A stretch of DNA of 64,000 nucleotides, taken from contig NC_081360.1 of NCBI RefSeq assembly GCF_030684315.1, positions 43,781,424 to 43,845,423 of the forward strand. The letters run 5' to 3'. Positions 213-55,843 of the stretch are shown here, piece after piece. This DNA comes from Stegostoma tigrinum. Lineage: Eukaryota. How positions within the stretch are numbered: the first letter of the stretch is position 1; every line of letters starts with the position of its first letter. The translations under genes were made by a program, and so were the position numbers. The notes under the pieces are model-generated. The model did not search any database, was not told the origin of the DNA, and saw nothing but the letters and a program-made list of their open reading frames with translations.

Positions 213-740
213 TTGTATCTGCTGTTCCTGATGTGGCCTTGTCTACATCAGTGAGACCAAGCAGAGGCTCAGATATCGTTTTATAGAGCACCTACACTTG
301 GCTCATGACAAATGACAACACCTCCCAGTCGTGAACCCCTTCAACTCCCCCTCCCACACCCTGGACGACATGTCCATCCTGGGCCTCCTCCAGTGTCACA
401 ACAATGACACCCGTAAACTGGAAGCCTACAACACAATGGTCTCAATGTGGCGTTACTAGCTTCAAAATCTCCCCAGCCCCCTCATCCCCACCCCCTTGAA
501 CTGTCTGTCTTCTCTCCACCTATCCACTCCTCCCACCTCACTGACCAATCCCCACCACTATCACCCTGCTATCACCAATCCTCCTCTCTATTTATTTCAG
601 AGCCTGCTTCGCCTCCCCTATTTCTGAATAAGTGTCCCTACCACAAACATCAGCTTTCCTGCTCCTCTGATGCTGTGCGCTCTGTTGTGTTCCTGCAGCT
701 CCACACTCTGTTAACATCTGCAGTTCTTACTGTCTTTCAT
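213..740 (+). mobile_element. Penelope-like element: GIY-YIG endonuclease remnant plus pLTR end with a degenerate hammerhead (624-651)
   Basis: Translates CIC.S*CGLVYISETKQRLRYRFIEH (GIY-YIG CxxC..YIGET.R.L..RF.EH). The 3' end is shared with the other pLTR copies. Confidence 0.8.
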
Positions 741-754
741 TGAAATATTCATAG

Positions 755-1720
755 AGTGGGCAGATAGGTTGCAGATGAAGTTTGATGTGAAGATGTACGA
801 GGTGAGATATTTTGGGAGAACAAACACAGATACTGTATAAACTAAAAGGGACTACCCTAGATGGTGGGCAGAGAGACTCCAGTGTATGAGTGCATAAGAA
901 TTAAAGGTGGCAGAGCAGGTGGTCAGAATAGCTAATAAAGCACACAGTATCTTTGGCTTTACTAACAGTGGTTTCCTGTACAACAGCACATGGGTTACAC
1001 TAAATCTGTGTATGATACCAGTTAGATGTCTGCTGAAGTATTGTTCCAGTTCTGGAAGCCACATTTTAGGAAGATCTGGAAGCATTGGTGACAGATCTCA
1101 AGTGGTTTGCAAGAAGTGGTTCCAGGGAGAGAAACTTCAATTATGAAAATAGAAGTTGGGACTGTTTTTCTTGGAGAGGAGAAGGCAGAAAAGAGATTTG
1201 TTTCAAGTTTTCAAAATCACGATAAGTTTGGACAGAGTAGAAGCAGATAAGCTATACCCAGTGGTGAAAGAATAAAGAATGAGAAAGCGCAAATGTTAGG
1301 AAATTCGATGTGAAAAGTTTCTTCTCAAACAGCAACTGTCCGTGTGGGGTTTGCACGTTCTCCCAGTGTCTGCGTGGTATTCCTCCCACAATCCGAAAAT
1401 GAACAGATTAGGTGGGTTAGCTGTGGTTAATGCCGGGTTACGGGGATGGGGTGGAGGGAAGGTGGGTCTTGGATGGGACACTCTTGGGAGGTTCGTTGTG
1501 CACTCGTTGGCCGAATGGCCTGCTTCCGTACGGTAGGGATTCTTTGTGCTACCTAAGTGTACCCGGAAGACAGGTTCCATTGAGGCATTGAGGAGGTCAT
1601 GAGATGAATATTTAAATAAAATGATGTGAAAGGGTACAGTCAAAGGACAGGATAATGGCATTTAGTCATGCTCCTCATTTGGAGAGCTATTGCAGACACT
1701 ATGGGAAGACTTCTGCACGG
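755..1720 (+). mobile_element. CR1 LINE 3' fragment, interrupted by an HE1 SINE
   Basis: Decayed CR1 RT C-terminus (W.M.F..KCEV..FG, LEYC.QFW.P) and CR1 3' UTR. Confidence 0.7.
1335..1543 (+). mobile_element. HE1-type (V-SINE) SINE, 5'-truncated
   Basis: V-domain sequence GTGTGG.GTTTGCACGTTCTCCC.GTGTCTGCGTGG and a CR1-like tail. Confidence 0.75.
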
Positions 1721-2462
1721 TTATTCTGCAATTCTTGAAACATCCGAGGGAAACAACTTGCAGGATTGTGGGGATAGAGCAGGAGAATGGGACTGACTAT
1801 TGTTTTTCAGAGGCGACATTGACCACCGTGTTTCTAATGGGCTCTTCCTTTGTTTTAATGACTCAATGACTTGGACAAAATATTGCAGGGCAGCTTGGAA
1901 ATTATACTTCAGTATATTTAGAGTAGAAAAAGGTGAAACATTTCTCCTTTATTGATATTAAACAGTTTTCTACGAAATATTCCTAAAAAATCAAACATTT
2001 TCAACAGTGAATTGACAAACTGTAATAAAATTTCGTCTATATTGCTATTTTTTCTAGAATAAAACACTTTGAGAGAGATCTTATATCATGTTCACTGAGC
2101 ATTTACACTATGATCGATGATATGCACCGCAAAAATGATGAATGGTTAGTTGATCCCTTGGTCAGTAACGCGGTTTAAAAGCTGATTTCTAAAAGCTCTC
2201 TAAAATTTATCGGGCAATATCAGCTCTAGTACCTTGGGCTGACAACCATATTTTAAAGGAGAAGAAAGAATTTTGATAAAATATCGCAAAGCCGTGAAAA
2301 CTGAATGTATTTGATATACTTCTGCTCAATCTCAGATTTAAATCTCCATGTTGTTGTGACATTTCGATGAGGTTAATTTCCAGTTGTTCATTGATCTCAT
2401 TAGAAGGTGCTGCACTGCTTTTTTTGGCGGGGGGGAGGGTTGGAAGGAGTGCTGGTGGTGTG

Positions 2463-2482
2463 GGGATGTTGAGCTTTGTAGT
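2463..2482 (-). promoter_or_regulatory. ZNF143/Staf (SBS)-like site, ACTACAAAGCTCAACATCCC
   Basis: The minus strand resembles the ACTACAnnnCCCAnnATGC SBS motif typical of CpG-island promoters. The match is imperfect and binding is inference. Confidence 0.3.
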
Positions 2483-2579
2483 GCAAGTGGGATCTCCGTT
2501 TGTGCGTGCACGATTTATTTCGTAGCAGACGTGAATATGTGAGACGCGCTGGTGGGAGCTGTGAGGCATCTCTGCTTGA

Positions 2580-2713
2580 CATGCCTCGTACGGCGAGGGT
2601 GCCGCTACCGTTCTGTGTGAGCCGCCGCTGCTGCTGAGATCGGTCTCTCCTTGGGAAGAGGAAGTCGGCGGCTGGGAGGGAAGGAAGGAGCAGTGGGCAG
2701 CTCGCGTCCTCAG
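2580..2713 (+). other. SESTD1: Probable non-coding exon 1 (5' UTR) of SESTD1; start approximate
   Basis: Consensus donor tcctCAG|GTGAGC inside the CpG island. Vertebrate SESTD1 has a non-coding first exon. The TSS cannot be fixed from sequence. Confidence 0.65.
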
Positions 2714-12030: not shown

Positions 12031-12150
12031 TGATAATGGGAACTGCAGATGCTGGAGAATCCAAGATAACAAAGCGTGAAGCTGGATGAACACAGCAGGC
12101 CAAGCAGCATCTCAGGAGCACAAAAGCTGACGTTTCAGGCCTAGACCCTT
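12031..12150 (-). mobile_element. Short Penelope pLTR-derived insertion ending inside the hammerhead, with 11-bp TSD
   Basis: Minus strand reads ...AAGGGTCTAGGCCTGAAACGTCAGC. The direct repeat CAAATTTCTAG lies at 12020-12030 and 12151-12161. Confidence 0.85.
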
Positions 12151-14094
12151 CAAATTTCTAGACTCCTTACTGAGTATCAGTGTCTCTTGATTAAAATGGT
12201 AATTCCCATTCGGTTAATTTTGTATATCCCATGTGCATTGTTTTGGGCTTGTCAAGTGACTACAACATTTTAAGTCAATAATGTCCTTTTATTTACCATT
12301 TTAAGTCTGTCAAAGTTTCAGGTATTAATGTCAAATGATTAAGATTAAATATTCATAATGAATTTTCATTAGTCCTAAAAAGATGGCCAATGTCACAACA
12401 GCAAGTCTCAATGAAAAAGCCAAGAGTGGCAAAGAGGCCAGAGGGACCAGTCCAAAACACTGAGGCTGATTTTCACTGGGGAATGTAGAGCACGAGAGCA
12501 TAACCTAAGAATATTATTAAGGGATTAGTCAGCGCTGAGCGTTGAAATTTCACTACTTGTAGAACTTTGAATCTTCAGAATTGTCTGTTTCAGAGAGATG
12601 TGGCTCCAGTCTGTTTATTTTCATGCTGAGATCAGTTTTTGTTGTTTTAGTGAATAAAGATCGGGGGAGCAGGCAGGTCAGTTGAGGTAGAAGATCAGAT
12701 GTGAATGTATTGAATGACCGAGCAGCTTCAAGAGCTACTTATTCTTCGCATTCATTTTGGTTTTGCATTCTTGTGATATGCCAGTTATAAGGCAAATTCA
12801 TTTGTATCTTTCTGGAGAGTCTGTTTCTCTTTCTACACTCGCTGTACACTGAAGTTTGTGAGAGTTGGAAAATATAAAAGACAAAATATGCTTTCGAGAC
12901 GTACAGTACTTATCATGTTGCATATCGGTTTCAGAAATCTATTGTGAAAATCACTAAGATTTACTGTTGTAGATGTATGTAATGATACTAAAAATGAAAG
13001 GAGTGCGCATCCTCAGTGCCTTGTTTAACCAAAAGCTAAAGTTCAAACTTCACATGGATTCATTAATATGAATTCAATAAAAAGTCTGGATCTGTTGCTG
13101 TTTTTTCTGTTTTGTCCTGCCATCTCTTCTGAAACTGTCATTCTGTACTAAAACAGCCATGAACTTCAAACATTTCTTACTGGTATCCTGTGCAGTACCA
13201 TTCATAACTACCTCTTGCCAAAAATGTTACTGCTCCTATTAAATTGTGTAAAGGTAGCACATTGCAGTCTTCTCAAAACTGATATCCATTTCATGCCCAG
13301 CGACTCCCACAGCTTCCTAGACTACACCTCCTCTCACCCACCTTCCTGTAAGAATGTGATCCCCTACTCCCAATTCCTCTGCTAGGTCTGCTCCCAAAAT
13401 GGGGCATTCCACTCCCGAATATCCCAGAGACAGAATCACCCTTATCCTCACATTGCCCCACTAACCTCCGGATTTAAAATATCATTCTCCGCCACTTGCA
13501 ATCTGACCTCACAACCAAGGATATATTTCCCGCCCCAACCCTACCTGCCTTCCGTAGGGACTGCTCTCTCCGTGACTCCCTTGTCCACTCCACACTCCCC
13601 ACTAGCCTCGGCACCTTTCCCTGCAACCGCAGGAAGTGCTACACCTGCCCTGACACCTCTTTCCACCGCCACCCCTCTTTTGCACCCCCCGCCACCTCCA
13701 ATCCAACGACCCAAATAAACCTTCCACACAGATATTCACATGCACATCCGCTAATGTCCAATGAATCTGCTGCTCCTGATGTGGCCTCCTCTGTATTGAT
13801 GAGACCAAGCGGAGGCTCGGACACTGCTTTGTAGCGCACCTACGCTCTGTGTTCATGACAAATGACAACATCTTCCAGCCGCGAACCACTTCAACTCCCC
13901 CTCCCACTCCCTGGATGACATCTCTATCTTGGGTCTCCTCCAATGTCACTACGACGCCGCCCGGAAACTGGAGGAGCAGCGCCTCATGTTCTGCCTTGGG
14001 AGCCTACAACCTAATAGTGTCAATGTGGACTTTACTAGTTTCAAAATCTCCCCACCCCAAGCCTCATTCCATGACCACTGTCCCTCTCATCCCC

Positions 14095-14228
14095 NNNNNN
14101 NNNNNNNNNNNNNNNNNNNNNNNNNNNNNNNNNNNNNNNNNNNNNNNNNNNNNNNNNNNNNNNNNNNNNNNNNNNNNNNNNNNNNNNNNNNNNNNNNNNN
14201 NNNNNNNNNNNNNNNNNNNNNNNNNNNN
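14095..14228. other. Assembly gap (134 N)
   Basis: Run of N inside the C-rich part of the Penelope pLTR. Confidence 1.
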
Positions 14229-14351
14229 CCCACCTCACTTATCAATCCCTACCTCTGCCTCCCTGCACTCCCCTATTGCCACCCTACCTACCTTGCCCAG
14301 CCCCACCCCTCCTCTATTTATTTCAGAGCTCTCTTTCCCCCTCCTCCATTT

Positions 14352-14379
14352 CTGAAGACGGGTCCTGACCTGAAACGTC
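14352..14379 (+). ncRNA. Minimal type I hammerhead ribozyme motif (PLE type)
   Basis: CTGAAGA-C-GGGTC CT GACCT-GAAAC-GTC: intact core, stem II, palindromic ACGT stem III. Stem I is weak. Confidence 0.65.
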
Positions 14380-14832
14380 AGCTTTCCTGCTCCTCTGGTG
14401 CTACCTGGCTAGCTGTGTTCCTCCAGCTCCACACTGTGCCAATGCTGGAGTCAGAGATAACAATCTTAAGAACTGCCAATCATCTGCTTGCCAACTTTCT
14501 CTGAATTGTCACCCTAGTATATTGATTTTATAAACCATACCTTTGTTTCAAAATGTATAACTTTTACCCATTTCCCAGCTTTACCATTGTTTTCATTTTA
14601 GGGCATGAAGCTCTATTAAAATTTGAGAGACTAATGAACCATATATTTGCTAATAAAGGTTCTTGCAGTAAGTAGTAACATTTTTAATGATTCCAAAACA
14701 TTATGTACAAAATAATCCAGAAGAAGGGGTCAGCAATCTAGTTAGATAGCACTTTTTATATATTTAAATTTTGATTCTCTTTTGCTTTGTTTTTGTTTGT
14801 ATCTGCCCTAATTGAGCTCCTTTTTTAATATA

Positions 14833-18210: not shown

Positions 18211-18227
18211 CCAAAGAACCACCTGTA

Positions 18228-18473
18228 TTAGCGAGTTTTGAGAAGATTTGTAGCTCGGGTTGAGTTTCTGGATGTGAGTTTGCTCGCTGAGCTCGAAGGT
18301 TAGTTTTCAGACGTTTCGTCACCATTCGAGGTAACATCAGTGAGCCTCCGGTGAAGCGCTGGTGTTTATGTCCCGCTTCACTGGAGGCTCACGGATGATG
18401 TTACCTAGAATGATGACGGAACGTCTGAAAACTAACCTTGCAGCTCAGCGAGCAAACTCGCATCCAGAACCTC
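18228..18473. mobile_element. Palindromic Penelope-derived insertion (second pLTR family) with a hammerhead motif in each arm
   Basis: Arms 18262-18358 and 18374-18473 are near reverse complements with a 15-nt loop. Flanks AGAACCACCTGTA and AGAACCTCCTGTA. Confidence 0.8.
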
Positions 18474-18930: not shown

Positions 18931-19243
18931 GAGATAACAAAGTGTGAAGCTGGATGAATACAGCAGGCCAAGCAGCATCTCGAGCACAAAAGCTGACGTT
19001 TTGGGCCTAGACCCTCCTTCAGAGAGGGGGATGGGGAGAGGGTTCTGGAATAAATAGGGAGAGAGGGGGAGGCGGACCGAAGATGGAGAGAAAAGAAGAT
19101 AGGTGGATTACAAGAGAGTTGCAGTGGGAGAGAGATTCCCTGAGGTTGGTCCGGAGGAAGGAGGGTAACTTCTTCAGGTTCGGCATCCCTGGAAGAGGCT
19201 TCGCAGTGAGGTTAAAATTGTATCAGAGATTATGGGAACTGCG
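18931..19243 (-). mobile_element. Solo Penelope pLTR unit with a mutated hammerhead (18995-19022)
   Basis: Same family as 12031. Imperfect flanking repeat ATTTGTGTGATTTTTGAG / AATTGTGTAATTCTTGAG. Confidence 0.8.
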
Positions 19244-19538
19244 GGAATTGTGTAATTCTTGAGCCTTGATAAGGCTTGAAACTTCCAAAAAGGGTGTTAT
19301 TCCAAGCTGAGTCTTGGATAGTTATATTTTTGCTGAAAAATCAGAATTTTTTTAACAAATTAGTACTGGTAATATTGCCAGACTTAGTTGTTGTGCTCCA
19401 ATCTGTTGAAGTTAATTGGCTAATCTAAGGTTTATGTTGCAGATCTAATTTTATAAATTTAATTTTTTTTGATAAGGTGCTGACTCAGTGTTTTATATTG
19501 CAGACTTAGACACTGCTGACTGTTCTAGTTCTGAAACT

Positions 19539-19593
19539 ATGGAAGCCACAAGCATGTTGCCCATACTGAAGAAAAGGCTAGCCTTTCTCTCAG
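19539..19593 (+). CDS. SESTD1: SESTD1 first coding exon (exon spans 19504-19593): MEATSMLPILKKRLAFLS(G)
   Basis: Acceptor ttttatattgcag|, branch-like CTGAC at about 19480, ATG at 19539 in ACTATGG Kozak context, phase-1 donor CAG|gtatag. Matches the SESTD1 N-terminus MEASVILPILKKKLAFLSG. Confidence 0.95.
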
Positions 19594-20203
19594 GTATAGT
19601 ATTGTGTATGTTACTTGAGAGCTTCATGAAAGATTGTTTTGCATTCTTGGTGTAAGTTTGCCGACCTATGAATTGAGCGTTTCCAATGATGTTACTTTTT
19701 GATTTGTCATTATGGTATTTTGAAAATTATTAATACTGCATGAACAACAGACTAGGGCTACAAAGAAATTATGAAAATGTATTTTATTGATGTCTTTATT
19801 AATCAGCATTTTCTTCTTAAAATTATTGTAAGTATCAGAAATTTTATTGCTAGCATTGGAGGAAGGTTAAAACTTGGAGTAATCAATCTAGTTGTGTCCA
19901 TTATATGATTTACAATTACAGATTTCAAACAATCAGTTTGTTCAACCGTTCAAAAATTGAATCTGGTCATACCTATTTTTTCGTTGATTAACGGAAATAA
20001 TGAACGCACTAGTCCACCTTGTGTGACCATTTCTGGTGAACGGTGTTAGCTACTGCACCCACCCACACCCCCCAACCGTTTTCACCTGTCTGACAAGAAT
20101 AAGTATCCTACCATCATCCACTGTGTCAAGTTGCCTCAGACTTTTGCATATTCCAGGAAGATGATCACTCACTTTACTCAACTCTCTTGGATCTGGGTAT
20201 AAC

Positions 20204-20393
20204 ATCTGTGAAGAACAACACAGTGTTAACCTTTCGGGTCCAGTGACCCTCCTTCAGTCCCTTCCTCCTCACTGGGCCTGAAACGGTGACTCTTTCTCTA
20301 TTTTCTTCACAGATGCTGACAGACCTGCTGACCTATTCCAGCAACTTTGTTTTTGTTCTCGATTTACAGCGTCTGCAGTTCTTTCAATTTTTG
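20204..20393. mobile_element. Fold-back Penelope pLTR fragment (third subtype) inside a LINE tail
   Basis: Arms about 20204-20246 and 20269-20314. The minus strand has CTGAAGG-AGGGTCACTGGACCC-GAAAGGTT. Confidence 0.7.
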
Positions 20394-22328
20394 CCACCTT
20401 GAGGGCAATTTGAAACTGGCAACAAATGCTGGCTAAGCCAGTCACACACCCATATCCCGTGAATGAATTTTAAAAATTCAAATGTTTTTTGATACCTGAA
20501 ACTGTGCATAGCACAATTTCAGGAACACACATGCAGAAATTCAAATATGGCAAGGCATCACAGAATTTATGTGACAACATATGCGAATGCAATTCTGCAC
20601 CTGTGCTGGAAAATAGTGTTAATTGGGACCGAGGATGCAGACTGGGAAGGAATGAGAATCTCCTGGAGTGATGAAGGAAGGGGGCCTAGAGGCCAGGGGT
20701 CATGGGGGCATGACAAGTGTGCCCAACAGCCAGAAAACCCTGTCCCCATCTTTTCTCCTGTGCTCCCCTGGCATTCTGCCCCTGTCATGACTACTGCCCC
20801 ACCCATTCCAACAACGATCTTGATCTTCCCCTCATCCTCTTTCCCGATTTCTTTTCCTCACATTCTGGATCCCGATCTTGCCTCAGGGCTGCGTCCTCCT
20901 GAAACTTTGTATGCATACATACTATTGTTAACAAATGCAGCCTTAAAAACAATGCTAAGGACCTGCACAACCACAGTAAGACTTACAATCTTTTAAGTTC
21001 TGTTCCTTTTTTCTTCTAAGGGAGATGAAGTATTAAGTTGTGGGTTCCTGTAGAAGATGGATTTCTGATGAACTATTTGATTTTCAGTGAATAATCATGA
21101 GATTAAGTTGTCTGAGATGAAAGAAGGTTGATCAATAAGCTAACTTCTTGGGCTTGAGTATCTGTATGTGTGTGTGTTTGCACTTCACACCAGTCTAGCT
21201 GCAGAGCAGAGAACGTGACTTTGCAGCAGATTTCGTTTGAAATTTGGTATACTCACTGAGAGTGTTAAACTTGTTAAGATATTGCAAAAAAAAATTAAAC
21301 TTGTTAACTGAAGGATTCTTACAGTCACTTAGACCTCCCAAGTTACCCAATCTGAGGACTGGAGAGAGAGTGTTTCTAGATATAAGACTCCAGATTTAAG
21401 GTGGCTTGGAGATTTCTGACCTGAGAGGGCCATGCTTAAGATGCTACTTTGGCTTGTTTTAACTTGGAGTGTATGACCGTGGGATGGTTGGACGTGTTTG
21501 AACCTCCTGATTCTGGTTTGAATTTTGTGAGTGAAAGTCAAATGTGTGTGAAGTAAATTTGAACAAGAACTTCAGTTTAAAGTATAAGCATTTGGGATTT
21601 TAATGAATGGCCAGAAATGTGAAATACAAAATATTATAATAATGCATGTTCACTTTGTTTTGAATTAAATGGTGAACCCCAGGACAGCTTCATTTGAACA
21701 AGTGCCTGAGATTTTAGATTATATAAAAAAAGTCCAAATAAGCACATTAGTAAACTGTATAGAGATCATAAGTCTTTTCAGGATTGTCGTTGTTGATAAC
21801 AGATGATTACAGGGCAAAGAAGTTTCGGCTTTTATATATTTTCTCCCCCTAACTTTAGGTTTTGCAGGAGTTAAAATGCAAATTCCTCTCCTAGAAATTA
21901 GTTTGCTCAGAGAACTTTAAACCTGTCAAACATGATGAATTGGACTGCCCTTTTATTATTTTGCAATGACTTTGAAAAAGTGCAGTTATCAGCAAATCTT
22001 CAATGGCTTTTGTAGGAAATCTCTCTTGATTATCAGCAAACTGCATGCAACAATATTGATTTTTTTTTTCAAAAGGCCAAAATCCTGTTGTAATCTGTGT
22101 AAGGCTGTTCTTTTGCAGTATAAAGATTACATTTTTTTTTAAATTTGCAAGTCTTTTATATGAGATTTAAATTTTAATTGTACTCATAAAATGTATTCTG
22201 ACTTAATGTTAAAGTAATTCTCAGATGTACTAACCGCTTGCCCCTTGTTTACTTTCTGCAGAATAAAATTAGATCCAAATCTGTGCAGAAATGTTGAATG
22301 TCTTACTGTAGCTGATTTTTGTCACAAT

Positions 22329-22618
22329 TTAGATTAGATTAGATTCCCTACAGTGTGGAAACAGGCCCCTTGGCCCAACAAGTCCACACTGCTCCCTGAA
22401 GCATCCCACCCAGACCCATCCCCCTATAACCCACGCACCTCTGAACTTTTTGGGCAATTTAGTATGGCCGATCCACCTAGCCTGCACATCTTTGGACTGT
22501 GGGAGGAAACCGGAGCACCCAGAGGAAACCCATGCAGACATGGGGAGAATGTGCAAACTCCACACAGACAGTCGCCCGAGGCTGGAATCAAACCACGGGT
22601 CCCTGGCGCTGTGAGGCA
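22329..22618 (-). mobile_element. HE1 SINE with 8-bp TSD
   Basis: tRNA B-box GGTTTGATTCC, V-domain and (AATCT)n tail. CAATTTAG at 22325-22332 and 22617-22624. Confidence 0.92.
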
Positions 22619-25330: not shown

Positions 25331-26811
25331 TATTTTTGTCTGGATCAGGTGTTTTGGGACTAAGTTAGGGTTGATGCAGTTATCTTAAAATTCCCCTATT
25401 CGTTTTGTACTTAAAATAAATAGATGACTACTAACACCAAAGAAACACTATTTTTAAATCAAGGCAATGTCAACTGATTGTAGTTATCGTGGAGTGCCAG
25501 TTAAATGTGGGGAAAGCTGTCCTGTGGTGGAGCTACACCTGATCCGTTTTAAAAATGATTGATTTTGGAGGCTAATCATTGCAGCCCAGACATTTGCTGC
25601 AGGATTTCTACAGGACAGTGTTCTTGGCCTAACCATCAATGTCCGTAATCTTGACTCTTTTTTAATTGGATATGTTTACTAATAAATGCCACTACCGCCA
25701 TTGAGGGGAAAGAGTCGAGCTTGCTTTCACCAAAATTTGAATGAAGCTCAGGATTGGAATGGAAAGTGAAAGGTAACGTTATCAATTGTCATGAGTGCCA
25801 ATACTGTTGCCAAAAACAAAACACTGTTGCCTTCCCAGCCTTTGTAGTACTATTGCTGATCTCCACACTATTAACACCTTGGTTAATAGTGTGGCAAATT
25901 GTTGACCAGAATTTTAAATGTACCAGCGGTCGTGCCAATATTAGAAGATCAAGGCAGTGGCTGTGTACTTTGTGTCAACTTTCCCACCACCAGGTACCAC
26001 AAGGCTTCATTAATTTTTCCAAGACTTAAGCTTGGAGTGAGATGGAATGCATCCCATTTCAATTTGTGTAACATGAAAGAAGCTTGTAGAACAAAGCAAT
26101 TTAATTGATACATAGCCTCCCCCTGGAATTAGTATTTTCCTGCTCCATCTCAAGTGTATTTGACAAGATACACCACAAACTCACCAAGCTTCGAACGCTT
26201 CCCTACCCTGAAATTCAAACACTTTTTGTCAAGTGCAATGTTTTATGGGAACATTCAAAACAGGAGCAGATGATGCAAACTAGATTTTTTTTCAGTATAA
26301 CCTTATGAGAGAATCTTGTCCTTCCTTTTATGTTATTAAAATACTTGCTGAAAATTTTATTAGTCATCCATTGGTCTGGGCAGGAATCTGCTTTATTTTT
26401 TCTGAATTTGAATTGTGCAGAATGAGTGCATGAATGTGTAACCAGTTTTCCAGGAAGACTATCTGTAGTCTTCAGACTGTGTGTATATTTTTGAAAGTTG
26501 TAGACATTTCTTTTGTAAGTAATAGAAGAAAAACTGCAAAATAATTTTAAAGGAAATTGTTAATGAAATTTGATTTGGGCATATTTCAAAAACAGATTAT
26601 GTGCCAAATTTTCTTGTGGGCCAAAACTCTCCATGAAAGTTTCTGAAATTGACACTTCCCCAAACTATGGGAATGTAGACCTATGTTTACATGAAGACAA
26701 GTAAAAAGATGCACTTCTTATAGCGGAGATAGCAGGAACTGCCGATGCTGGAGAATCTGAGATAACATGGTGTGAAGCTGGATGAACACAGCAGGCCGAG
26801 CAGGAAAGCTT

Positions 26812-26839
26812 GACGTTTCGGGTTGGGACCCTTCTTCAG
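26812..26839 (-). ncRNA. Minimal type I hammerhead ribozyme motif, intact core
   Basis: Minus strand CTGAAGA-A-GGGT CCCA ACCC-GAAAC-GTC. Confidence 0.7.
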
Positions 26840-27059
26840 AAATGGGGGAGGGGAGGGGATTCTGAAATAAATAGGGGAATGAGGGAGGCGGATAGAAGAT
26901 GGATAAAGGAGAAGATAGTGTGAAAGGAGACAGACAGGTCAAAAAGGCGGGGTTAGAGCCTACCCACTAACCTCATCCTGCCCCCCGACCTGTCCGTCCT
27001 CCCTGGACAAACTTATTTCCCCCCACCCCCCCAACTACATTCACCTTTACTGGCTCTAA

Positions 27060-27083
27060 CCCCCCCCCCCCCCCCCCCCCCCC
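27060..27083. repeat. Poly-C tract (24 nt)
   Basis: Direct read. It is an expansion of the short C run that mirrors GGCGGGG in the left arm. Confidence 0.95.
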
Positions 27084-27181
27084 GCCTCTTTGATCTGTCT
27101 GTCTCCTCTCACCCTATCTTCTCCTTTATCCATGTTCTATCTGCCTCCCCCTGTTCAGAATCCCCTTCCCCTCCCCCATTT

Positions 27182-27209
27182 CTGAAGAAGGGTCCTGACC
27201 CGAAACCTC
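27182..27209 (+). ncRNA. Minimal type I hammerhead ribozyme motif (CUC triplet; ACGT palindrome broken)
   Basis: CTGAAGA-A-GGGTC CT GACCC-GAAAC-CTC. Confidence 0.5.
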
Positions 27210-28685
27210 AAACTTTCCAGCTCCTCTGATGCTGCCTGGCTCCTGTGTTCATCCAGCTTCACACCACTTCTTATAGCCTTTGTTTTGTGATGCAAGCTAC
27301 AGAAAATGCACAAATGTAATTGCATGCGATCGTGGTCATTATTTTGCATTGAACTTTGAAACCTAAAGAAAGTCAGTAACTTTCTCACTTCTCTTTTTAA
27401 TGGCTAGAAAGTGTTCTCATGCTAACTTTTTTAATGCAAGACAGAGAGAACAAAGCTCATGGACCAAATCTTTTTGAAAAGGATAACATCTCTGAGGGAT
27501 ATGGATAAAAGAGAGGACTCCAGCTGTTAATGTATGCTTTCCCTGACAACTTCCCTCCAACTGGAAAAGAAGACAGACAAGGACAGAAAAGAAACAAAAA
27601 TAATTGGGAAAGAAAAAAGCAGGAAAGGAGAGTAGAACCAGAATAAATGTCAGCAGTTTGAAGGCTGTAGCGATATCAGAGAGATGCTGTACTGTCCCCC
27701 TTCGTGTGTATAAACTCCACTAGCCTATTAAAGTTTCACATAAAATAAATTTTACTTGCATTAAACTGAGGATCTCAGGATTGCAGGTTTAATTATATTA
27801 AAGCATTTTAAACGTTTGACTGGGCCAATATGTTTTTAGTCCCATTTCTCGTCTTTGGAGAATGTGTGTGGTTTCTTTCTGTGTAGTCACTGTTTTATTT
27901 TGAATTTTCTTCTGTGCACCCACGTCCACAAGGATTTTGCTTCTGACTAATTAAAATCTTACCATAAACATGAAACATTTAGTTAAAATTTTTTGCATTA
28001 TGTCAGAATAACATTGTAACTATTTTTAAAAGAATATAGCAGCTTTTAAGATTTGAAACTTTCATTCTTTGCAGAGAGTTGACATCATATTTTTTCTAAA
28101 CTGACAATTAGCTGACTGTAGCAAACAGAAAATGGCAGTAATGTTTAATTTTGCAGTTCATTGTCCTGATCTCTGTTCACTTAACTGTAAAGAAAGCAAA
28201 CTTAATATAACAGCTAGTTTAACTTTCCATTGCCAGACTTGGCTGGAACACTTAAAACATTTCTGGGACCTGCTCTTATCTGGGCACCCTGGAGCGCAAA
28301 GATAACTTTCATCTCTTTTACGGAAACACCTCTGCCTTATCTACTGCACATTCACCTGCAGCAACAAGTGCAACGACCTCTTGAACAACTATATCAATAT
28401 GATTGAGAAAATCCAATCAGCTATATCTGCAATGATCATCTCTTTCATGAGTTGACTTGCCCAACTGTATTTCATGCTGACTCCTTTCCTGGACCTGATC
28501 TTTCTCCTCTCTCCCTCATGCCATGTTCCCTTGATCCTATTTTCACGAAACTGCTAATTGCACAGCATCCTGTTTTGTCCCTCGTATTAACTGATGTAGG
28601 AAATGGTTCTTTCTCTTTCAAATATGAAGTTACTGCATGAAGCAAGAACACAGGGTATTGGGGGTAGTATGTTAGCACCATAACT

Positions 28686-30109: not shown

Positions 30110-32560
30110 TTTACATGGGATCGGGCATTGCTGGCTATCCACCTTTTTATTGCCATTTCGTAATAGTCTTAGAGAGCATTAGAGGGACAACTATAGCACT
30201 GTTAGGAAGGCAGTTTCAGAATTTTGATCAGTGACAGTGAAGGAACAAAGATACAGTCTCAAGTCCGGATGGTGTGCAGCTTGGATGGAAACTTTCATGT
30301 CACTGTGTTCTGACAGCATCTGTTGCTTATGCCTTTTAAGTGGTAAAGGCCTCCAGTTGGTTGCTGCATTTTAAAAAGTGTTGCTGAGCTATTGCAGGGC
30401 ATCTTGCAGATGCTCCACACTGCCCCAGTATGCGTCAGTGATAAAGGGTATGCATGTTGATAGTAGTGGATATGACACTTAAGTGAGCTGCTTTGTCTTC
30501 GGTGTCAAGCTTCTTGAGTGTTATTGGAGCTGCATTCACGTGGCACGTGGAGAGTGTTCCATCTCACTCCTGACTTCTGCTTTGTAAATAGTGGACAGGC
30601 ACTGGGGAGACAGAAGGTGTGTTACTCACCATAGCATTCTCAGCTATTAACCTGGTTTTGTAACTGCAATGTATATGGCTGAGCAAGTTCTGTTTCTAAT
30701 CGATCGTAAACTCCAGGATAAAAGTAGTGGCAGATTTAGCGATGGTAATATCGTTGAATGTTGAGGAGTGACAGTTAGATTCTGTAATTGGAGACTGTCA
30801 TCGACTGGCACTTGTGTAGCACAGTGACTTGTTCCTTATCAACCTTATCTGGGCACTTCACTTGTCCACTTATCAAGACTTTTAAAAAGCATTTAGGTCA
30901 TGCTTGAAATGCCGTAGCATACAAGGCTGTAGGTCAAGTGCTGGGAAATGTGATTAGAATAGATAGATGATTGATAACTAGCCCAGACAAGACCATCCAA
31001 AAATCCCTTTTCTGTGCTGTAAAAACTTTCCATAACCCAAGAACAAAAACAAAGTTGCTAGAAAAGCTCAGCAAGTCTGGCAGCATCTATGGAGGAGAAG
31101 AACCCAAGACTTGCAGTTGTCTAGGTCCTGGTAGTTATGGATGTTTTCCATATCTGAAGTGCTGCAGAGATACTGAACATCATGCAATTATCTGTAGAAA
31201 GAAAGTCAGCGATGAACAGTTGGAGATAGTTGGACTAATTTTGAGGAATTCCTGCAATGATGGCCTTGAGCTGACATGATGGATCTCCAACAACCATTGC
31301 CATCTTCTTTTGTGCTATATATGACTGTCCAGTAGAGGGTTTTACTCTGATTTCCATCGACTCCAGTTTTTCTAAGCCCTCTTGATGCCATATGTGGTTA
31401 TATGGACCTTTTTATTGCAAAGACATCACTCACATTCTGAATTTCAGCTTTTATCTTGTCCATCCTTGGACCAAGGCTACAATGAGGCCAGGAACTAAAT
31501 ACCCTTGGTGGAACTCAAACTAAGTATCAGCAGATTATTCCTTTGTATGTTCAGTCTGATATGTCTTGATCCTTCCGTTCCCTTTGCTGACAATGGAGAG
31601 TAGGCTGATTGGCTGGCTGGTATTTTGACCTTGTTGGATTTTTCCTGATTGTTGTGCCCAGGACGAATTTTCCCTCTAAGCTGTATATTTGTATACCTGA
31701 GTAATATTCCATGTTGTTAGCTAGATGGCAGTGATGAGCTGTATCATTACAACTGGCTAGAGATTGCTCGTTCTGGAGCAGAGTCTGCAGTACTGTTGCT
31801 GGAATGTGATCGGGGTCCATAGCCTTTGCAGTATCCAGAGCTTCCAGCCATTTCTTTCTGATATCAGTGCATCATTTGGTTGAAGGCTGGATTCTGTGAT
31901 GCTGGTGATATCTGAATGCAACAGACGAATCATCCACTTGCAAATCTGGCTAAAACAAGCTCTTTACCTGGCGCTAATGTGCCAATCTCCTCCACCTTTG
32001 AGGTTGGGAATATTTGTGGAGCTTTCACCAACTGTTAGTTCAGTTTCCCACCATCATGGCAGTGGTTCAGAGCTTAGGTAGAAATCAACAGAGGGATTTA
32101 TTGCATATATTTGGACATGAGATTTCAGGGTCCAGTCTGGATATTAAAGACTCCAATTATAACTCCTTTCCAGTTCTATGTCGTTGTGCTGCTGTGTCTA
32201 ATGAGCCTGACCCACCAGTGGACAGGACATGCCCAGGGTTGGGAATGGCAGTGGTGGCATCTGAGACATTGTCTGCAAGGTATGATTCTGTAAGTATGAC
32301 TAAATTAGGCTGATGCTTAAATAGTCTTTGGGACAACAACCTCAATTTTGGAACAAGCCCCCACATGTTAGGAAAGGGGTCTTTTCAGGGTCGCCTTGGC
32401 TGTGTTTGCACTTGTTTTGCCATCTACTCTGGTTTCATTCTTTTCATTAAGCTCTGTAGTGGTTTTGTAGAACTGAGTGGTTGACTGTGCTGTTTCATAG
32501 GGCATTGAGAATCAACCACACCACTGTGGGTCATCTGTCATATGGGCCAGATTAGGTAGG
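30110..32560 (-). mobile_element. CR1/L2-group LINE, internally deleted, spanning APE endonuclease to the 3' tail; interrupted at about 30860-31110
   Basis: N.WGLVPKL...QPNLVILTESYL (APE start) at 32157-32366, DPDHIPATVL RT entry, and the shared tail near 30110. Confidence 0.75.
31043..31100 (-). mobile_element. 58-bp Penelope pLTR fragment with 9-bp TSD
   Basis: AACCCAAGA at 31034-31042 and 31101-31109. The body matches the 20320-20355 and 36565-36612 sequence. Confidence 0.7.
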
Positions 32561-33130: not shown

Positions 33131-33140
33131 TAAATGTCAT

Positions 33141-35944: not shown

Positions 35945-38130
35945 ACTTTCCAGCACCTGACTCATAACCTTCAATGTAAAGACATTTTGAATGTCCGCTT
36001 TTAAAGGTTGTGAGCTTTCCCAGCTCAACTACCCTCCCAGGCAGTGCTTTCCAGATTCCCACCAGACCAGGCAGTGCATTTCAGATTCCCACCATCCTCT
36101 GGTGAAAAAAAACATTTTCCACAAATCGCTGCCTTTCAGCGTAAAATTATGCCCCCCTTGATATTGAGCCTTCAACTAAGAGGGACAGCTGCTTTTTATT
36201 GTCCATGCTGCTAATAATCTTTTATACCCAAGTCAAGTCCCATCAGCTGTCTTTGCGCCAAAAAGCAACCTGAGTTTATCCAGCCTCTCCCCACAGCTAA
36301 ATTGCTCCATCCTGGCAATATCTTGGTTAATCTTCTGCACCTGCTCAGAGCAATCATATCCTTTCAATAGGCAGTGACAAGAACTGCATACAATATTCCA
36401 GTTATGGTGCAGCCAAAGTCCTGTGCAGCTCCGTAATAACCTCCCTGCTCCTATAATCCATAACCGATTAAAAGCAAGTCTAATGCATTCCTTCTTAACT
36501 ATCCTATTAACTTAGTTATGAGGAAGGGTCACCGAACCCAAAACGTTAACACTTTTTTTTCTTCACAGATGCTGCCAGACCTGCTAGCTTTTCCAGCAAC
36601 TTTGTTTTTGTTCCTGATTTATAGCATCCACAGTTCTTTCAGTTTTTATCCTATTAATTTGACCTGCCTCCTTTATCGATCTGTGGACAAGCAACCCCAA
36701 GATCTAAGCTTCCTAGTGCCCTGCCATTCATTGAATACTGCCTTGTTTTGTTCCTTCATCCAAAGTGCATCACCTCACACTTATCAGGGTTAAATTCCAT
36801 CTGCCACTGATTTGCCCATCTGACCAATCCGCCTATATCGTCCTGTAACCTAAGACCATCTTCCTCTCTGTCAACCACCCAGCCAATCTTTGTGTCATCT
36901 GTAAATTTCCTTATCGTTGACCACGAACAGGCAATCCCAGCTCCCATGTTTACTCCTATGCCGTTTATGTAAATCATTAGTAGTAAGGGACCCAACAATC
37001 CAAATAGATTGCCCTACTCTTTTTCCCTATTTATCCTCTTCCCCTTGATGTACTTGCAGAATATCTTGGAATTCTCCCTAATCGTGCCCTCTCTTTTTGT
37101 TTCCGGAATGCTTTATAGTCCCTCCCACTCCTCCTCCGCTTCTTCCCCCCCCCCCCCCAAGCCTGCCATATCTTTAAACCTTCACTAGGACCCCTGTTGA
37201 TTTCCTCCCTTTGTCCCTGTTAAAAACCTCTTTTCCTTTTTATCTAGTCATGAATATGCCAAGATTCTGGATTTTCGGGCTTGTTGCTCCTACACTTTGC
37301 CCTAAAAGGAACATATTGGGCCTGGAATCTCACAATTCCATTTGAGCACCCCCAAACTGTTCTACCTTATCCTTACTCAGAAGTAGCTATTCCCAGTCTA
37401 CTTTGGCCATATTCTGCTTTATTTTAATAAAATCTACCCTCCCCTGGTCCAAAATCCTTTTTTCCAGACCATCTTTTTCCTTTTCCTCTTCCATAACAAA
37501 CTTAAAATGTACAATGTTGGGGCCACTATCACTACAATGCTTTCTCACTGCTACCTTGAACATCTGCTGAGCTTCGTTCCCCAGCATAGCAGCATTCCTC
37601 GTTGGACCTTCTTCATGCTAATATAAAAGCTTTCCTGAATATATTTGAATAAATTTGTTGCCACTCCCAACCACCACCACAATCTCTACACTATGACTCT
37701 CCCAATTAATGTTGAGGAAATTGAAATTCCTTAGTATAATTAACCTATTATTGTTTTTACATACCTCACTAAACTGCCTACACGTCTACTCCTATATTGC
37801 CTGCTGACTATTTTGAGGTCTGTAATATATTCCCAGCAGTGTGCCTGCCCCCTTTTTATTCTTGAGCTCTATACTAAGCCTCATCAAAGCCTCATTTGAA
37901 CACATTTATGCGATATTGTCCCTCTTTGCTGCAGTCACCGAATTGTTAATTCATAAGGCAACATGGTCTCTTTACATTCTGTACTGTCCTGCCTGAAGAT
38001 CCTATACGTGGCATGTTGAGCACCAGTCATGCCTGTCCCTCAACCACATCTCTTTGATGGCTACATCGCCACAATTTCACGTGTCAACGCACACCCTTAA
38101 CTCATCTGTCTTACCTATAATACTTGCTTC
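35945..38130 (-). mobile_element. CR1 LINE, internally deleted (endonuclease and RT remnants)
   Basis: LGPLLLMIYIN..KFTDDTKIG..WQMEFNPDKCEVMHFG and the APE C-terminus LGNEAQQ...DS. Ends just upstream of a SESTD1 acceptor. Confidence 0.8.
36511..36646 (+). mobile_element. Short Penelope pLTR insertion starting at a degenerate hammerhead, with 11-bp TSD
   Basis: AGTT-ATGAGGA-AGGGTCACCGAACCC-AAAACGTT-AAC. TATCCTATTAA at 36500-36510 and 36647-36657. Confidence 0.82.
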
Positions 38131-38216
38131 CAATAAATTTTGTTCCATTGTTATAATGATGTTTTTCGGATTGATTTGCCATTGTAATGTGCTGACAAAA
38201 AATATTTGCTTTTCAG

Positions 38217-39455: not shown

Positions 39456-39565
39456 TCACTGGACCGGAAACGTTAACTCTGCTTTCTCTCCATTGATGCT
39501 GTCAGACCTGCTGGGTTTCTCCAGCAATCCCTATTTTTGTTGGATTACCAACATCCACTTTTTTT
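39456..39565 (+). mobile_element. Penelope pLTR fragment beginning in hammerhead stem II
   Basis: TCACTGGACCGGAAACGTTAACTCTG...GATGCTGTCAGACCTGCTG. Confidence 0.7.
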
Positions 39566-40644
39566 GTCAATGACAGTACAGTAGTTGTGTTTTTCAAAGG
39601 CCTTTGGCAGATTCTTGGGTATAATTTTTGTTTTGAATTACCCAACAGGGGTGAGTGGTGATGAAACATATGTGCAAACTGTGTTGAATGTTTCCTGTAT
39701 TAGCCAACATGTTTCATCAGGGTAGGGGGAAATGTGACACTGAAAGCCTGCCTGATCCAACCCCCATGGCAATTAAGATGGCTAAAGAGCTTATTTGAGA
39801 ATTTGTTGAGTGGTATATTCAGATTTTAAGTGGGTTGTCCAGATTGTCTGGGTCAGACCAGGCACATACAGCTGGCAATTCAGCAGTCAGCCAGCCATAG
39901 CCCACCACAGGGACTCGGATGGGTTCATTGAGGCAGTAGATGACCTAGGGGGGATCTTGGCAATTAACATACGGGTATTAATAGATCGCCACAGTATTTG
40001 GGAAAGAGGCCAGGAATTAGGTGGGCATTGCAAGAAATTGTCAACCCACTGGCATCATGGATAATACAATGGGGAAAAAGTTGCCAAATCCTATCTGAGT
40101 GTGATTACACTTGACAGCAGGGCCTGGACTTGCAGTGATGTTATTACCAGAAATATCTTTGTCACAGGGCCTTGCTGCACAGTTGCCTTATGCTGGTTCA
40201 GTCAGGGGGATGTGAGAGACAGCTATCATCCTCCAACGCAGTCATGGCTGTTGGCTGGTGCTCCAGATGGCTGGAGTGGCAACCAGCTTTGATACAACTG
40301 GCATTTCAAGTATCACGTGCTAACACTGCTGCCACCTGGTCAAGGTTGTGTAATGTGGCATGCATCCAGTGAATACCCTTACATAGTAACTATGTGCACT
40401 TGAAGTGTTGCACATAGTTCTCCATGAAGTTAGCCACACGCGCTTAGTGGCGAAATTTGTGAACTTGAGCCTTCAGCTTTGTTAGCACACTTGGTGGCTG
40501 GATTCCTGACTGAACATTCTATCAGGGAACTCTAATATGTGGAAGCAAGTCTGTTATTGCTGGTCTAAAAGTACAGTCTCACGTGAGCCTTTATCTGTGC
40601 ACAGATGTTTAGAAGTGTATATGCCCATCTCGAGACTTAGCTAG

Positions 40645-42954: not shown

Positions 42955-43137
42955 CACAACAAAAGCAACTGCAGATGCTGGAAATCTGAAACAAAAACGG
43001 AAATTACTAGAGAGACTCAGCAAGTCTGGCAGCACCTGTGGAGAGAAAACGGAGATACCGTGCCAGATCCAGAAGAAGGGTCACTGGAAAGAAAACAAAG
43101 GCAACATTTCTGGTCCACTGACTCTTCTTTAGGACTG
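42955..43137 (-). mobile_element. Penelope pLTR fragment with an internal inverted hammerhead piece
   Basis: Plus-strand AGAAGAAGGGTCACTGGA (about 43071-43088) faces the minus-strand TGGTCCACTGACTCTTCTTTAG. Confidence 0.7.
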
Positions 43138-43914
43138 TTGTGAAGGAGCCAAATAAACCCAAAACGTTAAATGTGCTTTCCTGCCACACCCATGTCTCTG
43201 CAGAAATCTCTGCCCCTGTTATAAACCTATCTGTGACACCTCAACTCCGTTATCACCAAATAAGTCCGAGAACTTTTTTTTTCTCTCTCTCTTTCTCTCT
43301 GAGATCCCTTTGCCTCTCTGTCCTTCTGTAAAGTCTCTGCAGACGCCATCTCTTCAACAGTCTATTAGTCACTGCGTCATCTTTTCTTATCTGGCTGAAG
43401 TCTCTATACCTTTTCTGAAAGGGAACTTGTGTGGTCTCATCGTATTTGTAATTTTTCTATGTTCTTTTGTGGGGCATATGTGCCACTGCCAGCATTTGTG
43501 TCTATCCTTATTTGCCCTTGAACTGAATTGTTTGCTAGGGCTATTTCTGAGTCAGCCACATTGCTGTGGGTCTGAACTGACATGTAGGCCAGACTTGGTA
43601 AGGAGGGCAAATATCCTTTCCTGAAGGATGGATTTTGACAACAATCACCACTGACTTCCTGTGCACTTTTAATTCTAGCTTTCAATTAATTATTAATTCA
43701 ATTGACACTTCACCAACTGTCATGGTGAGATTTGAACCCGTGTACCCAAAGTGTTGCTCTGGGAGTCTTGCTTAACAGTACAGTCATATGACCATTACCA
43801 TCTGCCTTTATTGCATTCTAGATGTAAATAGTTGTTGACAAAGTGTTGTTATGTTATGTCTACAATTAAATCTCCATTTAAAATGGAATTCCTATTCAAG
43901 TGATTAGATTCAAC

Positions 43915-46574: not shown

Positions 46575-46665
46575 TGATAAGTGTAAAGCCAGAGGCTTTA
46601 CAGTTATAGTGGATGGCCGGAAATCTCAATGGAATGTAGTGAAGACGGTTGTGCTGATGCTGCAG
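46575..46665 (+). CDS. SESTD1: SESTD1 coding exon: (S)[30 protein letters not shown]
   Basis: tttctttcttgcag| acceptor, CAG|gtaagg donor, 91 nt, phase 2 to 0. Carries the [13 protein letters not shown]14-domain motif. Confidence 0.96.
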
Positions 46666-47738: not shown

Positions 47739-47964
47739 TAACAAGTTGTGGAGCTGGAGGAACACAACAGGCCAGGCAGCATCAGAAGAACAGGAAAGCT
47801 GATGTTTCAGGTTGGGGCCCTTATTTAGAAAAGTTTTCTGAAGGAGGCCCACGCCCGAAACATCAGCTTTCCTGTTTCTGTGATGCTGCCTAGCCTCCTG
47901 TGTTCTTCTAGCTCCACACTTTGTTATCTCTCACTCCAGATCTGCAGTTCTTGCTATCTCAGTC
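47739..47964. mobile_element. Spacer-less palindromic Penelope pLTR element with 10-bp TSD
   Basis: Symmetry centre AGAAAA-G-TTTTCT at 47833. Hammerhead remnants at 47801-47828 (-) and 47838-47864 (+). GTGCAATAGA at 47729-47738 and 47965-47974. Confidence 0.87.
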
Positions 47965-52980: not shown

Positions 52981-52989
52981 CTTTCTTAC

Positions 52990-53619: not shown

Positions 53620-53733
53620 AATGTGATTCCTGCTGAGGTGTCCTTAGTCTGTGTGGTGAAACCAGATGAATTCTGGGACAAGAAAGTGACTCATTTTTGC
53701 TTTTGGAAGGAGAAAGATAGACTTGGATTTGAG
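53620..53733 (+). CDS. SESTD1: SESTD1 coding exon: [38 protein letters not shown]
   Basis: ttctgttacctag| acceptor, GAG|gtatgt donor, 114 nt, phase 0 to 0. Matches SESTD1. The gene continues past the window end. Confidence 0.96.
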
Positions 53734-54662
53734 GTATGTGAACACTGATGTGTTCTCCAGCATGGGTATTGTGTTCTTGCAATTTTTAATCTGGTTTAAA
53801 GTCTCCAATATTACTTTACTTTCATTAAATGTACTATCAATGTAGAACTCAAAACTTATTTCTGATAGTACTACTGTGTCCAAAAATAGGAAGTCTTCAG
53901 AGTTTTGACATGTTTACAGATTTTTTGGAGTATTTACAGATTAAAACCATCACATTTGTGAAAAATCTACAACAAATGTTTACAGGAAGTAGATTATAAA
54001 TATCATCTTTCTGCGTTCCTGTAGATGACATTGTACAAATAACCTATTGTTGGGGCTGGTGTAAAAAATAGCATTTTAAATTAACTTGATTTTTTTCATC
54101 GTTGTCATTGTTTAATGAATCATGATAGCTTAGTTAAGAAGATATAGGATTGATTCTTTAAATAAGGATGAAGTTAGTGGACGTTCATAGTTTCACGTTT
54201 TTCAGGAAGTTAAACTAATTCTGATTTTCAAATTTGGAAGAATGTGCATACTCAAGCTTTTCTGAAAACTAGATCTATGTCTTAATGTTGGGCATTTTAG
54301 TTTTTTTGTTATTTATGCACTGAAGTGGATTAAATACTGAAGAAAAATAATAGGTTTATTACTTTTACACAATGATCTAAGTTTCATAAACAGCTGTGAA
54401 GCAGCACTACTTACTGTTGACCTTCAATAGAGCTGCAGAATCTAGTGATCTGTATAACACCAAATTCCGGTTTCCTGATGTTGCTTTAAATATGGCTGTA
54501 AGCCAAGAGAATCATCAGGTGTTCAACAACAGTGATATCAAGCAGGGTAAGCAGCCAACCATATTGCAGTATACTTTCAGAAACGAAAACAGGAAGTAAG
54601 AACGACTAAATTCCTTCATTTTAATTTTTAAATTTCATAGCGAGATAATAACTGAACAAGCA

Positions 54663-54780
54663 TCACTAGACCCAAAATGTTAACTCTGCTTTCTCTCCGC
54701 AGATGCTGCCAGAATTCCTGGGTTTCTCCAGCAATTTGTTTTTGCTTCAGATTTCCAGAATTCAGTTTTTGTTTCAATTC
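54663..54780 (+). mobile_element. Penelope pLTR fragment beginning in hammerhead stem II
   Basis: TCACTAGACCCAAAATGTTAACTCTGCTTTCTCTCC.CAGATGCTGCCAGA. Confidence 0.7.
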
Positions 54781-55013
54781 TTTTTATACATGGGCTGAAG
54801 TTAGAAACTGAAATAAACCGTCAAAAGAATAATTATTTGCATACTACATGGGAATTTTTATTGTTTTAGAAAAATGATATTTGACAAATACAAAATTAAT
54901 CTTTTAGAGCCATTGACGCTGTTTTAGAAAAAAAATGAATTTATACTGTTAAAATTGAGTTACACCTCACTTAAACTGTAACAAGATTTTTTACTGTTAG
55001 ACCAAGGGCAGAA

Positions 55014-55332
55014 GATTAGATTAGATTCCCTACAGTGTGGAAACAGGCCCTTCGGCCCAACAAGTCCACACCGCCCCTTGAAACATCCCATCCAGACCCA
55101 TCCCCCTATAACCCACACACCCCTGAAGACTACGGCAATTTTAGCATGGCCAATCCACCCAACCTGCACATCTTTGGACTGTGGGAGGAAACCGGAGCAC
55201 CCAGAGGAAACCCACGCAGACACGGGGAGAACGTGCAAAGTCCACACAGACAGTCACCCGAGGCGGGAATCGAACACAGGTTCCTGGTGCTGTGAGGTTG
55301 CAGTGCTAACCACTGAGCCAATGTGCCACCCC
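55014..55332 (-). mobile_element. HE1 SINE, full length
   Basis: A and B boxes, V-domain and (AATCT)n tail. Confidence 0.93.
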
Positions 55333-55594
55333 TAAAGAAGAGTGTACGTTCTTGTCAGTTCAGTGATTAAGAATAGATTACATTTTAGAGGTCCACAACT
55401 ATGCATCTCCTGGAGTCAAGAAGAATCACTGATAGCTACTTGTGGGCCTCCATGTTTAACTACTTAACAGTTAACTAATCTACAAATTCCAGAAAATGCA
55501 CACTGATAGTTTTGAAATTATGCTGATTACAGCAATGAAGGTGACTCTAGATAGAAATAGATCAAATAGTCTCCCTTATTCTTAACTATTCTTA

Positions 55595-55843
55595 GCCCAG
55601 TTCGTCCCCGCCTCCCTAACCTGTTCTTCCTCTCACCTATCCCCTCCTCCCACCTCAAGCCGCACCTCCGTTTCCCACCTACTAATCTCCTTGACCTGTC
55701 TGTCCTCCCCGGACTGACCTATCCCCTCCCCACCTATACTCTCATCTCCACCCATCTTCTCCTTAATCCATGTTCGGTCCGCCTCCCCCTCTCTCCCTGT
55801 TTATTTCAGAACCCTCTCCCCAACCCCATCTCTGATGAAGGGT
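55595..55843 (+). mobile_element. Penelope pLTR fragment ending in the hammerhead core (CTGATGAAGGGT)
   Basis: C-rich pLTR body homologous to the reverse complement of 19020-19100. Confidence 0.75.

Follow-up and report, generated by a model that had tools for sequence, protein, structure and literature searches.

Hammerhead-bearing repeats in a gene locus of Stegostoma tigrinum are most probably decayed insertion stumps of Penelope-like retrotransposons

Penelope-like elements (PLEs) are retrotransposons whose terminal repeats (pLTRs) bear a minimal type I hammerhead motif (PMC4209133) and also hold the promoters of the element (PMC2377424). PLE insertions display inverted arms, a tail on one arm and a layout of target-site duplications (TSDs) like that reported here (PMC8557442, PMC3846280), and the Penelope derivatives of rotifers include inverted pLTRs, solo pLTRs and internal deletions (PMC3846280). 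A zinc-finger-like motif within the linker that separates reverse transcriptase (RT) from endonuclease (EN) marks the Neptune and Nematis clades (PMC8557442). The protein of PAc, the Poseidon element of the anole Anolis, cuts and extends both strands, with complementary DNA (cDNA) starting at two internal RNA sites, and its insertion in vitro does not need ribozyme cleavage; the PAc open reading frame (ORF) starts at stem II of the hammerhead and the RT 111–118 nt into the ORF (PMC11167929). Tandem units and circular RNA are the defining features of non-LTR retrozymes (PMC7229834). Their source has been traced to PLE pLTRs, retrozyme consensus lengths in one cartilaginous fish average 363 bp, and one of nine tested dimers cleaved, whereas eight did not (bioRxiv 10.64898/2026.07.22.740005). 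Here we analyse 64,000 nucleotides of Stegostoma tigrinum (assembly GCF_030684315.1, contig NC_081360.1, positions 43,781,424 to 43,845,423; hereafter the window). An initial annotation of this gene locus had listed 16 hammerhead-like positions and proposed that the short units may constitute a non-autonomous, retrozyme-like mobile RNA system, processed by the ribozyme and driven by the Penelope RT/GIY-YIG seen at 13275-14440.

The repeats are, we conclude with good confidence, decayed insertion stumps of PLEs whose terminal repeat bears the known minimal hammerhead, and most copies likely lost the ribozyme core by later mutation. Self-BLAST and profile searches recovered 21 hammerhead arms at 14 insertion sites (Table 1), nine belonging to family A, ten to family B and two to family C. 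All 16 listed positions fall within hammerhead-like repeat sequence, and the profile searches added arms at ~20270(+), 31100(-), 43084(-), 43132(-) and 43140(+). The hammerhead motifs of the window exceed chance: a strict minimal-hammerhead descriptor matched 2, 3 and 8 times at 0, 1 and 2 mismatches, compared with 0, 0 and 0–1 matches in each of ten shuffled versions of the window. One of the eight, at 38775, lies outside any repeat copy and was taken as chance. Weak profile matches at 11463, 16591, 30092, 30323, 38620, 41464, 660, 14865 and 21180 scored in the shuffled range and were not counted, and the low-scoring piece 43140-43182 was retained since it adjoins the composite 42957..43182.

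Few of these motifs are complete. An intact minimal type I motif was taken to comprise C3-A9, G12-A15.1, a palindromic 15.2-16.2 and U16.1-H17, and only two of the 21 arms, 14352(+) and 26839(-), carry it exactly. The core is present at 27182(+) with the C-G of helix III broken (one mismatch to the descriptor), and at the remaining 13 listed positions the core is mutated (e.g., at G8, A9, G12 or U4) or half of the motif is missing. Stem II G-C pairs are retained in 6–9 of ten aligned copies, with a two-sided change at one of four pairs. No hammerhead match was returned by an Rfam search of the window at E<=5, and none of the motifs folded more stably than its shuffles, as expected for minimal motifs. 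The three motif classes described earlier all exist, but A and B are not separate: their profiles cross-match, which makes them homologous sister subfamilies (51–75% pairwise identity between A and B, 71–94% within A, 72–86% within B), and only C stands apart.

The connection to PLEs comes from family A, whose copies at 624 and 14352 run on into the end of a broken PLE ORF, the hammerhead lying downstream of the ORF and in sense orientation to it. A profile of 78 full-length relatives matches the window at 13-216, 208-420 and 13263-14036. Linker identity is 72–79% to the eight best protein matches (79% to a whale-shark RT/GIY-YIG protein), and the nearest named relative, P0004, carries RVT_1 and GIY-YIG; Pfam applied to the PLE fragments of the window alone gave no significant family. 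Where a source is named for a protein relative, it is a shark, which makes a cartilaginous fish the likely host. A single ORF with RT and C-terminal GIY-YIG, as in EN-bearing (EN+) PLEs, was found for family A only, from broken fragments. The RT-EN linker (13478 frame) holds a zinc-finger-like Cys-x4-Cys-x2-Cys that is conserved in relatives, suggesting that families A and B are of the Neptune clade, with the motif being common to Nematis and family B being placed by homology only. Further evidence comes from metagenomes. Of 80 related loci, 33, not all of them independent, have an ORF end and at least 300 nt of flank, and in 13 of them a minimal hammerhead lies 100–300 nt behind the ORF, in sense orientation; as controls, the same 33 loci hold no antisense hammerhead and none inside the ORF. 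This position behind the ORF in relatives identifies the motif as the ordinary pLTR hammerhead of PMC4209133, and the attribution to minimal type I hammerheads of Penelope-like pLTRs made in the initial annotation is thereby borne out. Five loci (L003, L004, L027, L035 and L069) have the motif and post-cleavage-site bases as in family A and, by eye, two 3' end lengths. A pattern scan of the metagenome contigs for the family A motif gave no matches.

The family A element proposed as helper fares differently. The copy at 13272-14438 is a 5'-truncated, broken fragment with stops, frameshifts, deletions and an N gap, and is unable to supply protein. The assembly gap comprises 134 N at 14095-14228, within the 3' untranslated region (UTR) of this copy. 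The description of the insertions as non-coding needs correction at three sites, since 624 and 14352 reach the ORF end and 18995 has an ORF start. The two separate ORF-bearing copies at 207(-) and 13272(+) have starts that lie only a few bases apart on the ORF. A deleted subfamily of ~1.2 kb could account for this, as could a preferred stop or mere chance; ahead of 13272, the flank has a faint likeness to a tail remnant. In the whale shark, the phosphatase-like protein model P0012 has the N-terminal region of this PLE ORF at its end and may represent a chimeric gene model or an exonised element. Splice-acceptor-like pyrimidine tracts ending in AG occur at 14320-14330, 19045-19055 and 36560-36570, in family A some 25 nt ahead of the core and in family B directly behind the motif. 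In Drosophila, Penelope has an intron adjoining the hammerhead (PMC4209133).

Copy ends are not random, as had been anticipated. Among 14 measured A and B arms, the 3' end lies 83–90 nt past C3 in four, 115–138 nt past it in nine and at 58 nt in one, yielding two classes about 40 nt apart; such fixed ends are the 'tail' signature, with its two sites, that is known from PLE reverse transcription (PMC11167929). Three pairs, 26812/27182, 47801/47838 and 18310/18392, lie head-to-head, each with a single TSD and a tail on one arm only, and the window displays the optional 30–40 bp tail, 5' truncation, inverted arms and variable-length TSD of EN+ PLEs. Many insertions had been credited with TSDs of 9–13 bp. 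This stands for six of the 14 sites, where TSDs of 10–19 bp are convincing (score at least 10, reached by none of 150 random position pairs), and a 9-bp repeat at 31100 is borderline, five of 150 random pairs attaining its score. Candidates at 39456, 43071, 54663 and 55832 were rejected as within the random range, as was that at 624, which lies inside ORF sequence, and a search at 14352 and 20228 found none.

The stumps were likely written by the element's own RT and EN from uncleaved RNA. By analogy with PAc, the protein would nick both target strands, and cDNA would be primed downstream of the hammerhead, at either of two internal RNA sites; on the same analogy, two priming sites combined with double-strand nicking would account for both classes of ends and for the inverted pairs. 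Synthesis would pass the uncleaved ribozyme and often stop where the ribozyme begins, whether through a stall on the fold or through run-off at an RNA 5' end in the pLTR. None of the 21 arms starts at the hammerhead cleavage site, which argues that the templates were not cleavage products. At their 5' ends, six long family A arms have staggered starts along one 3' UTR/ORF. Relative to C3, the start lies between about -7 and +14 in nine of the ten short arms (seven of eight insertions) and farther down in the tenth; binomial probabilities for this clustering are 1.6e-4 by arm and 1.4e-3 by insertion, with windows chosen post hoc and offsets taken partly by eye. Shorter stumps are detectable, planted ones having been recovered in 52 of 54 leave-one-out trials. 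We did not find clustering of short copies at the core start described in the articles consulted, in a search not aimed directly at it.

Several points weigh against the interpretation as PLE stumps. The 5' ends of short arms are clustered at the hammerhead core and not random, the priming and stalling steps are borrowed by analogy from an element of another clade, and the deletion junction at 19106/19107, treated below, is spanned by two other diverged contigs. Moreover, of the ten family B arms none extends beyond about 7 nt upstream of the core; no ORF link is thus shown for this family, and it could be a non-autonomous family of ~135 nt. Family B would then resemble a short interspersed nuclear element (SINE) with its full length beginning at hammerhead stem I, and its 'truncated' copies would be near full length. 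The TSD-bounded copy 36511-36646, which starts 7 nt before C3, is consistent with this, as are 454 contigs of run X1 with loose, AT-rich, low-agreement ends at 19023, one base before C3, although these ends may lump several subfamilies and nearby ends. However, ORF-linked family A has the same start cluster (12129, 47801, 47838), so that a separate B element is not needed, and summed X1 depth upstream of the core does not drop for A-like sequence. We give the SINE-like element little credence.

Processing of all short units by the ribozyme, the model from which this analysis started, would agree with the non-random ends, the TSDs and the three sequence classes, but most of the evidence contradicts it. 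Only two motifs are exact and nearly all cores are broken, the long copies run varying lengths into the 3' UTR/ORF of an ordinary PLE, the named helper is broken, and PAc inserts in vitro with no need for cleavage (PMC11167929). The window contains no tandem repeat with a period >30, and the head-to-tail units with complete hammerheads that characterise non-LTR retrozymes were not found within its 64 kb; three same-strand neighbouring motifs within 1 kb are all broken. Because neither a tandem array nor cleavage-site starts are present, a retrozyme-like system is not supported for the set, and the full model, which we hold to be very improbable, is largely refuted.

A narrower version of this idea is raised by one insertion, 18934-19244(-), which comprises 311 bp of a ~330-bp permuted unit with about 18 nt missing. 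It reads, in order, tail end, 5' UTR, 27 ORF-start codons (19186-19106), 3' UTR, hammerhead and short 3' end, with a deletion junction at 19106/19107 that joins the ORF start to the 3' UTR. The 27 encoded residues share 96% identity with the beginning of P0011, and the N-terminus of P0011 in turn matches 68 of the 78 full-length PLE proteins (reversed control best 0.025). Two diverged contigs span the junction with at least 31 letters on both sides: X1 record 4 has 10 other letters and 13 gaps, X6 record 30 has 13 other letters and 2 gaps. X5 record 23 has a different ORF-start-to-hammerhead join. These come from the 15 of 90 joints that were listed, and the many others have fewer than 30 letters on one side in purine-rich sequence and were flagged unreliable. 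Contigs of runs X5 and X6 cover only exon and repeat and look RNA-like, but are not on record as RNA. Summed contig depth in X1, which does not represent copy numbers, is 11,210 at 19108, compared with 6.7 million at 19092, 0.9 million at 19124 and ~19 in the flanks; this low junction depth implies that the deleted form is a small minority.

The 18934-19244 insertion likely stems from a ~330-bp unit that bears an internal deletion and was mobilised in trans, and likely corresponds to a non-autonomous, internally deleted mini-element of the described kind, at one of the 14 sites. As its cDNA spans the cleavage site, the template would have to have been an uncleaved tandem transcript or a circle. 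Such units could form a family that is transcribed in tandem, cut by dimeric hammerheads, possibly circularised and reinserted by autonomous PLE protein, a minority system that can coexist with the PLE stumps. Circular permutation lacking so little sequence and bounded by a TSD, the near-identity to the P0011 start, the bridged junction with its alternative join, and a length close to the 363-bp average of chondrichthyan retrozymes (bioRxiv 10.64898/2026.07.22.740005) all speak for it. Yet the unit occurs at a single site, its own core is broken at A9 and G12, the window offers no array, and no joint at the cleavage site is present among the 15 of 90 joints listed. The differing breakpoints would equally fit repeated one-off deletions, short-sided joints are unreliable, and eight of nine tested dimers remained uncleaved in the work cited. 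We consider this minority system a genuine if somewhat doubtful possibility. Tentatively, and with more doubt than belief, the hammerhead could also be viewed as a preferred 5' boundary of PLE cDNA. Internal priming at the 5'-proximal site of normal mRNA would then generate fixed-length, SINE-like hammerhead minis of 90–135 nt by run-off, with no separate RNA, and ORF-start/pLTR joins would mark the birth of ~330-bp retrozymes from a Neptune-type shark element.

Apart from the hammerhead repeats, the window contains exons of a host gene for a CRAL-TRIO/SEC14-type protein, which we take to be SESTD1, and the PLE insertions lie around these exons. A SINE-like family of ~270 bp, presumably HE1, occurs at 22331-22602, 32812-33083, 34271-34542, 55013-55284 and other positions, and one copy abuts the broken hammerhead at 55843. 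A degenerate 7SK-like match above the Rfam gathering score at 6409-6643 is probably a pseudogene or derived repeat; the 7SK-like and hairpin miRNA matches from Rfam are unrelated to the hammerheads. RT fragments of the long interspersed nuclear element type lie at 56979-61200, with a long inverted pair at 57270-58262 / 60201-61198.

Table 1. Insertions with hammerhead-related sequence and the host-gene exon, by position in the window.
Positions	Strand	Feature	TSD or other evidence
1..207	-	Family A inverted arm; RT thumb region of PLE ORF; leaves the window	tblastn/profile matches to full-length RT/GIY-YIG proteins; inverted match to 13272-13428
208..740	+	Family A arm; GIY-YIG end, 3' UTR, hammerhead at 624 (G8, G12, G16.2 changed), tail	
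12031..12151	-	Family A stump; start within core, near C3+5; 3' end of the long class, tail present	11-bp TSD at 12020/12151
13272..14463	+	Family A copy, the longest; RT thumb (broken), zinc-finger-like linker, GIY-YIG, 3' UTR, exact core 14352-14379; short 3' end at 14438, directly followed by inverted tail piece 14439-14463 (by eye)	
18228..18465		Family C head-to-head pair; mutated cores at 18340(-) and 18392(+)	13-bp TSD (1 mismatch) 18215/18466
18934..19244	-	Internally deleted family A unit, 311 bp; hammerhead 19022-18995 mutated (A9, G12)	19-bp TSD, 3 mismatches
19504..19593	+	Host-gene exon	Further exons near 38215 and at 46575-46665
20200..20395		Family B head-to-head pair; A9 changed in core 20257(-); start of plus arm in stem II	TSD not found
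26725..27264		Family A head-to-head pair; 26839(-) exact, with tail; 27182(+) with helix III broken, without tail; arm starts about 120 and 220 nt up the 3' UTR	13-bp TSD 26712/27265
31043..31100	-	Family B stump without hammerhead; begins several nt past the cleavage site	Borderline 9-bp TSD
36511..36646	+	Family B copy; starts 7 nt before C3; core mutated (C3, G12); tail	11-bp TSD 36500/36647
39456..39573	+	Family B stump; starts in stem II; with tail	TSD not convincing
42957..43182		Old family B composite; four degenerate pieces, orientation alternating	
47739..47964		Family A head-to-head pair; junction 3-4 nt ahead of either C3; core mutated in both arms; only the plus arm has a tail	10-bp TSD 47729/47965
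54652..54779	+	Family B copy; degenerate core; begins at about C3; with tail	TSD not convincing
55590..55843	+	Family A 3' UTR and 5' half of hammerhead, broken in stem II beside another repeat family	

The window adds shark examples of known PLE anatomy, and the very many decayed hammerhead motifs in such genomes would accordingly be read as transposon debris and not as working ribozymes. Should the clustering of 5' ends and the ~330-bp deleted unit be borne out across the genome, this would provide a testable handle on where PLE reverse transcription ends and on how PLEs give rise to non-LTR retrozymes.

Each of the described systems shares part of its anatomy with this locus. Non-LTR retrozymes (PMC7229834; bioRxiv 10.64898/2026.07.22.740005) resemble the 18934-19244 unit in its pLTR derivation, length of ~330 bp, solo copy and long TSD, but the latter differs in the lack of a tandem array in the window, in its minimal and broken core and in the ORF-start piece that it carries. 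PAc is the one element to which family C can be likened. The family C pair has its ATG inside the hammerhead motif, at 18337(-) and 18398(+), one arm stops 110 nt into the frame and the other at about 70 nt, and the tail is on one arm, a start-codon and end layout that by this analogy may be of the Penelope/Poseidon type (PMC11167929). Unlike PAc, family C has no Poseidon-type RT or EN in the window, and an Atlas search with its 36-residue frame gave no usable match; in family A, the ATG lies about 170 nt past C3. Neptune/Nematis-type EN+ PLEs (PMC4209133; PMC8557442) share with the locus the RT, the zinc-finger-like linker, the C-terminal GIY-YIG and the minimal type I motif, in which an unpaired base precedes stem II and helix III is replaced by a palindromic CG, together with 5' truncation, inverted arms, the 30–40 bp tail and variable TSDs, whereas the window holds fragments only and stem I of family A beside the core is just 2–3 bp. 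The Penelope derivatives of rotifers (PMC3846280) have the same head-to-head arms, palindromic junctions, one-arm tail and microhomology-type internal deletion, and compared with these the window is far denser, with 14 sites in 64 kb.

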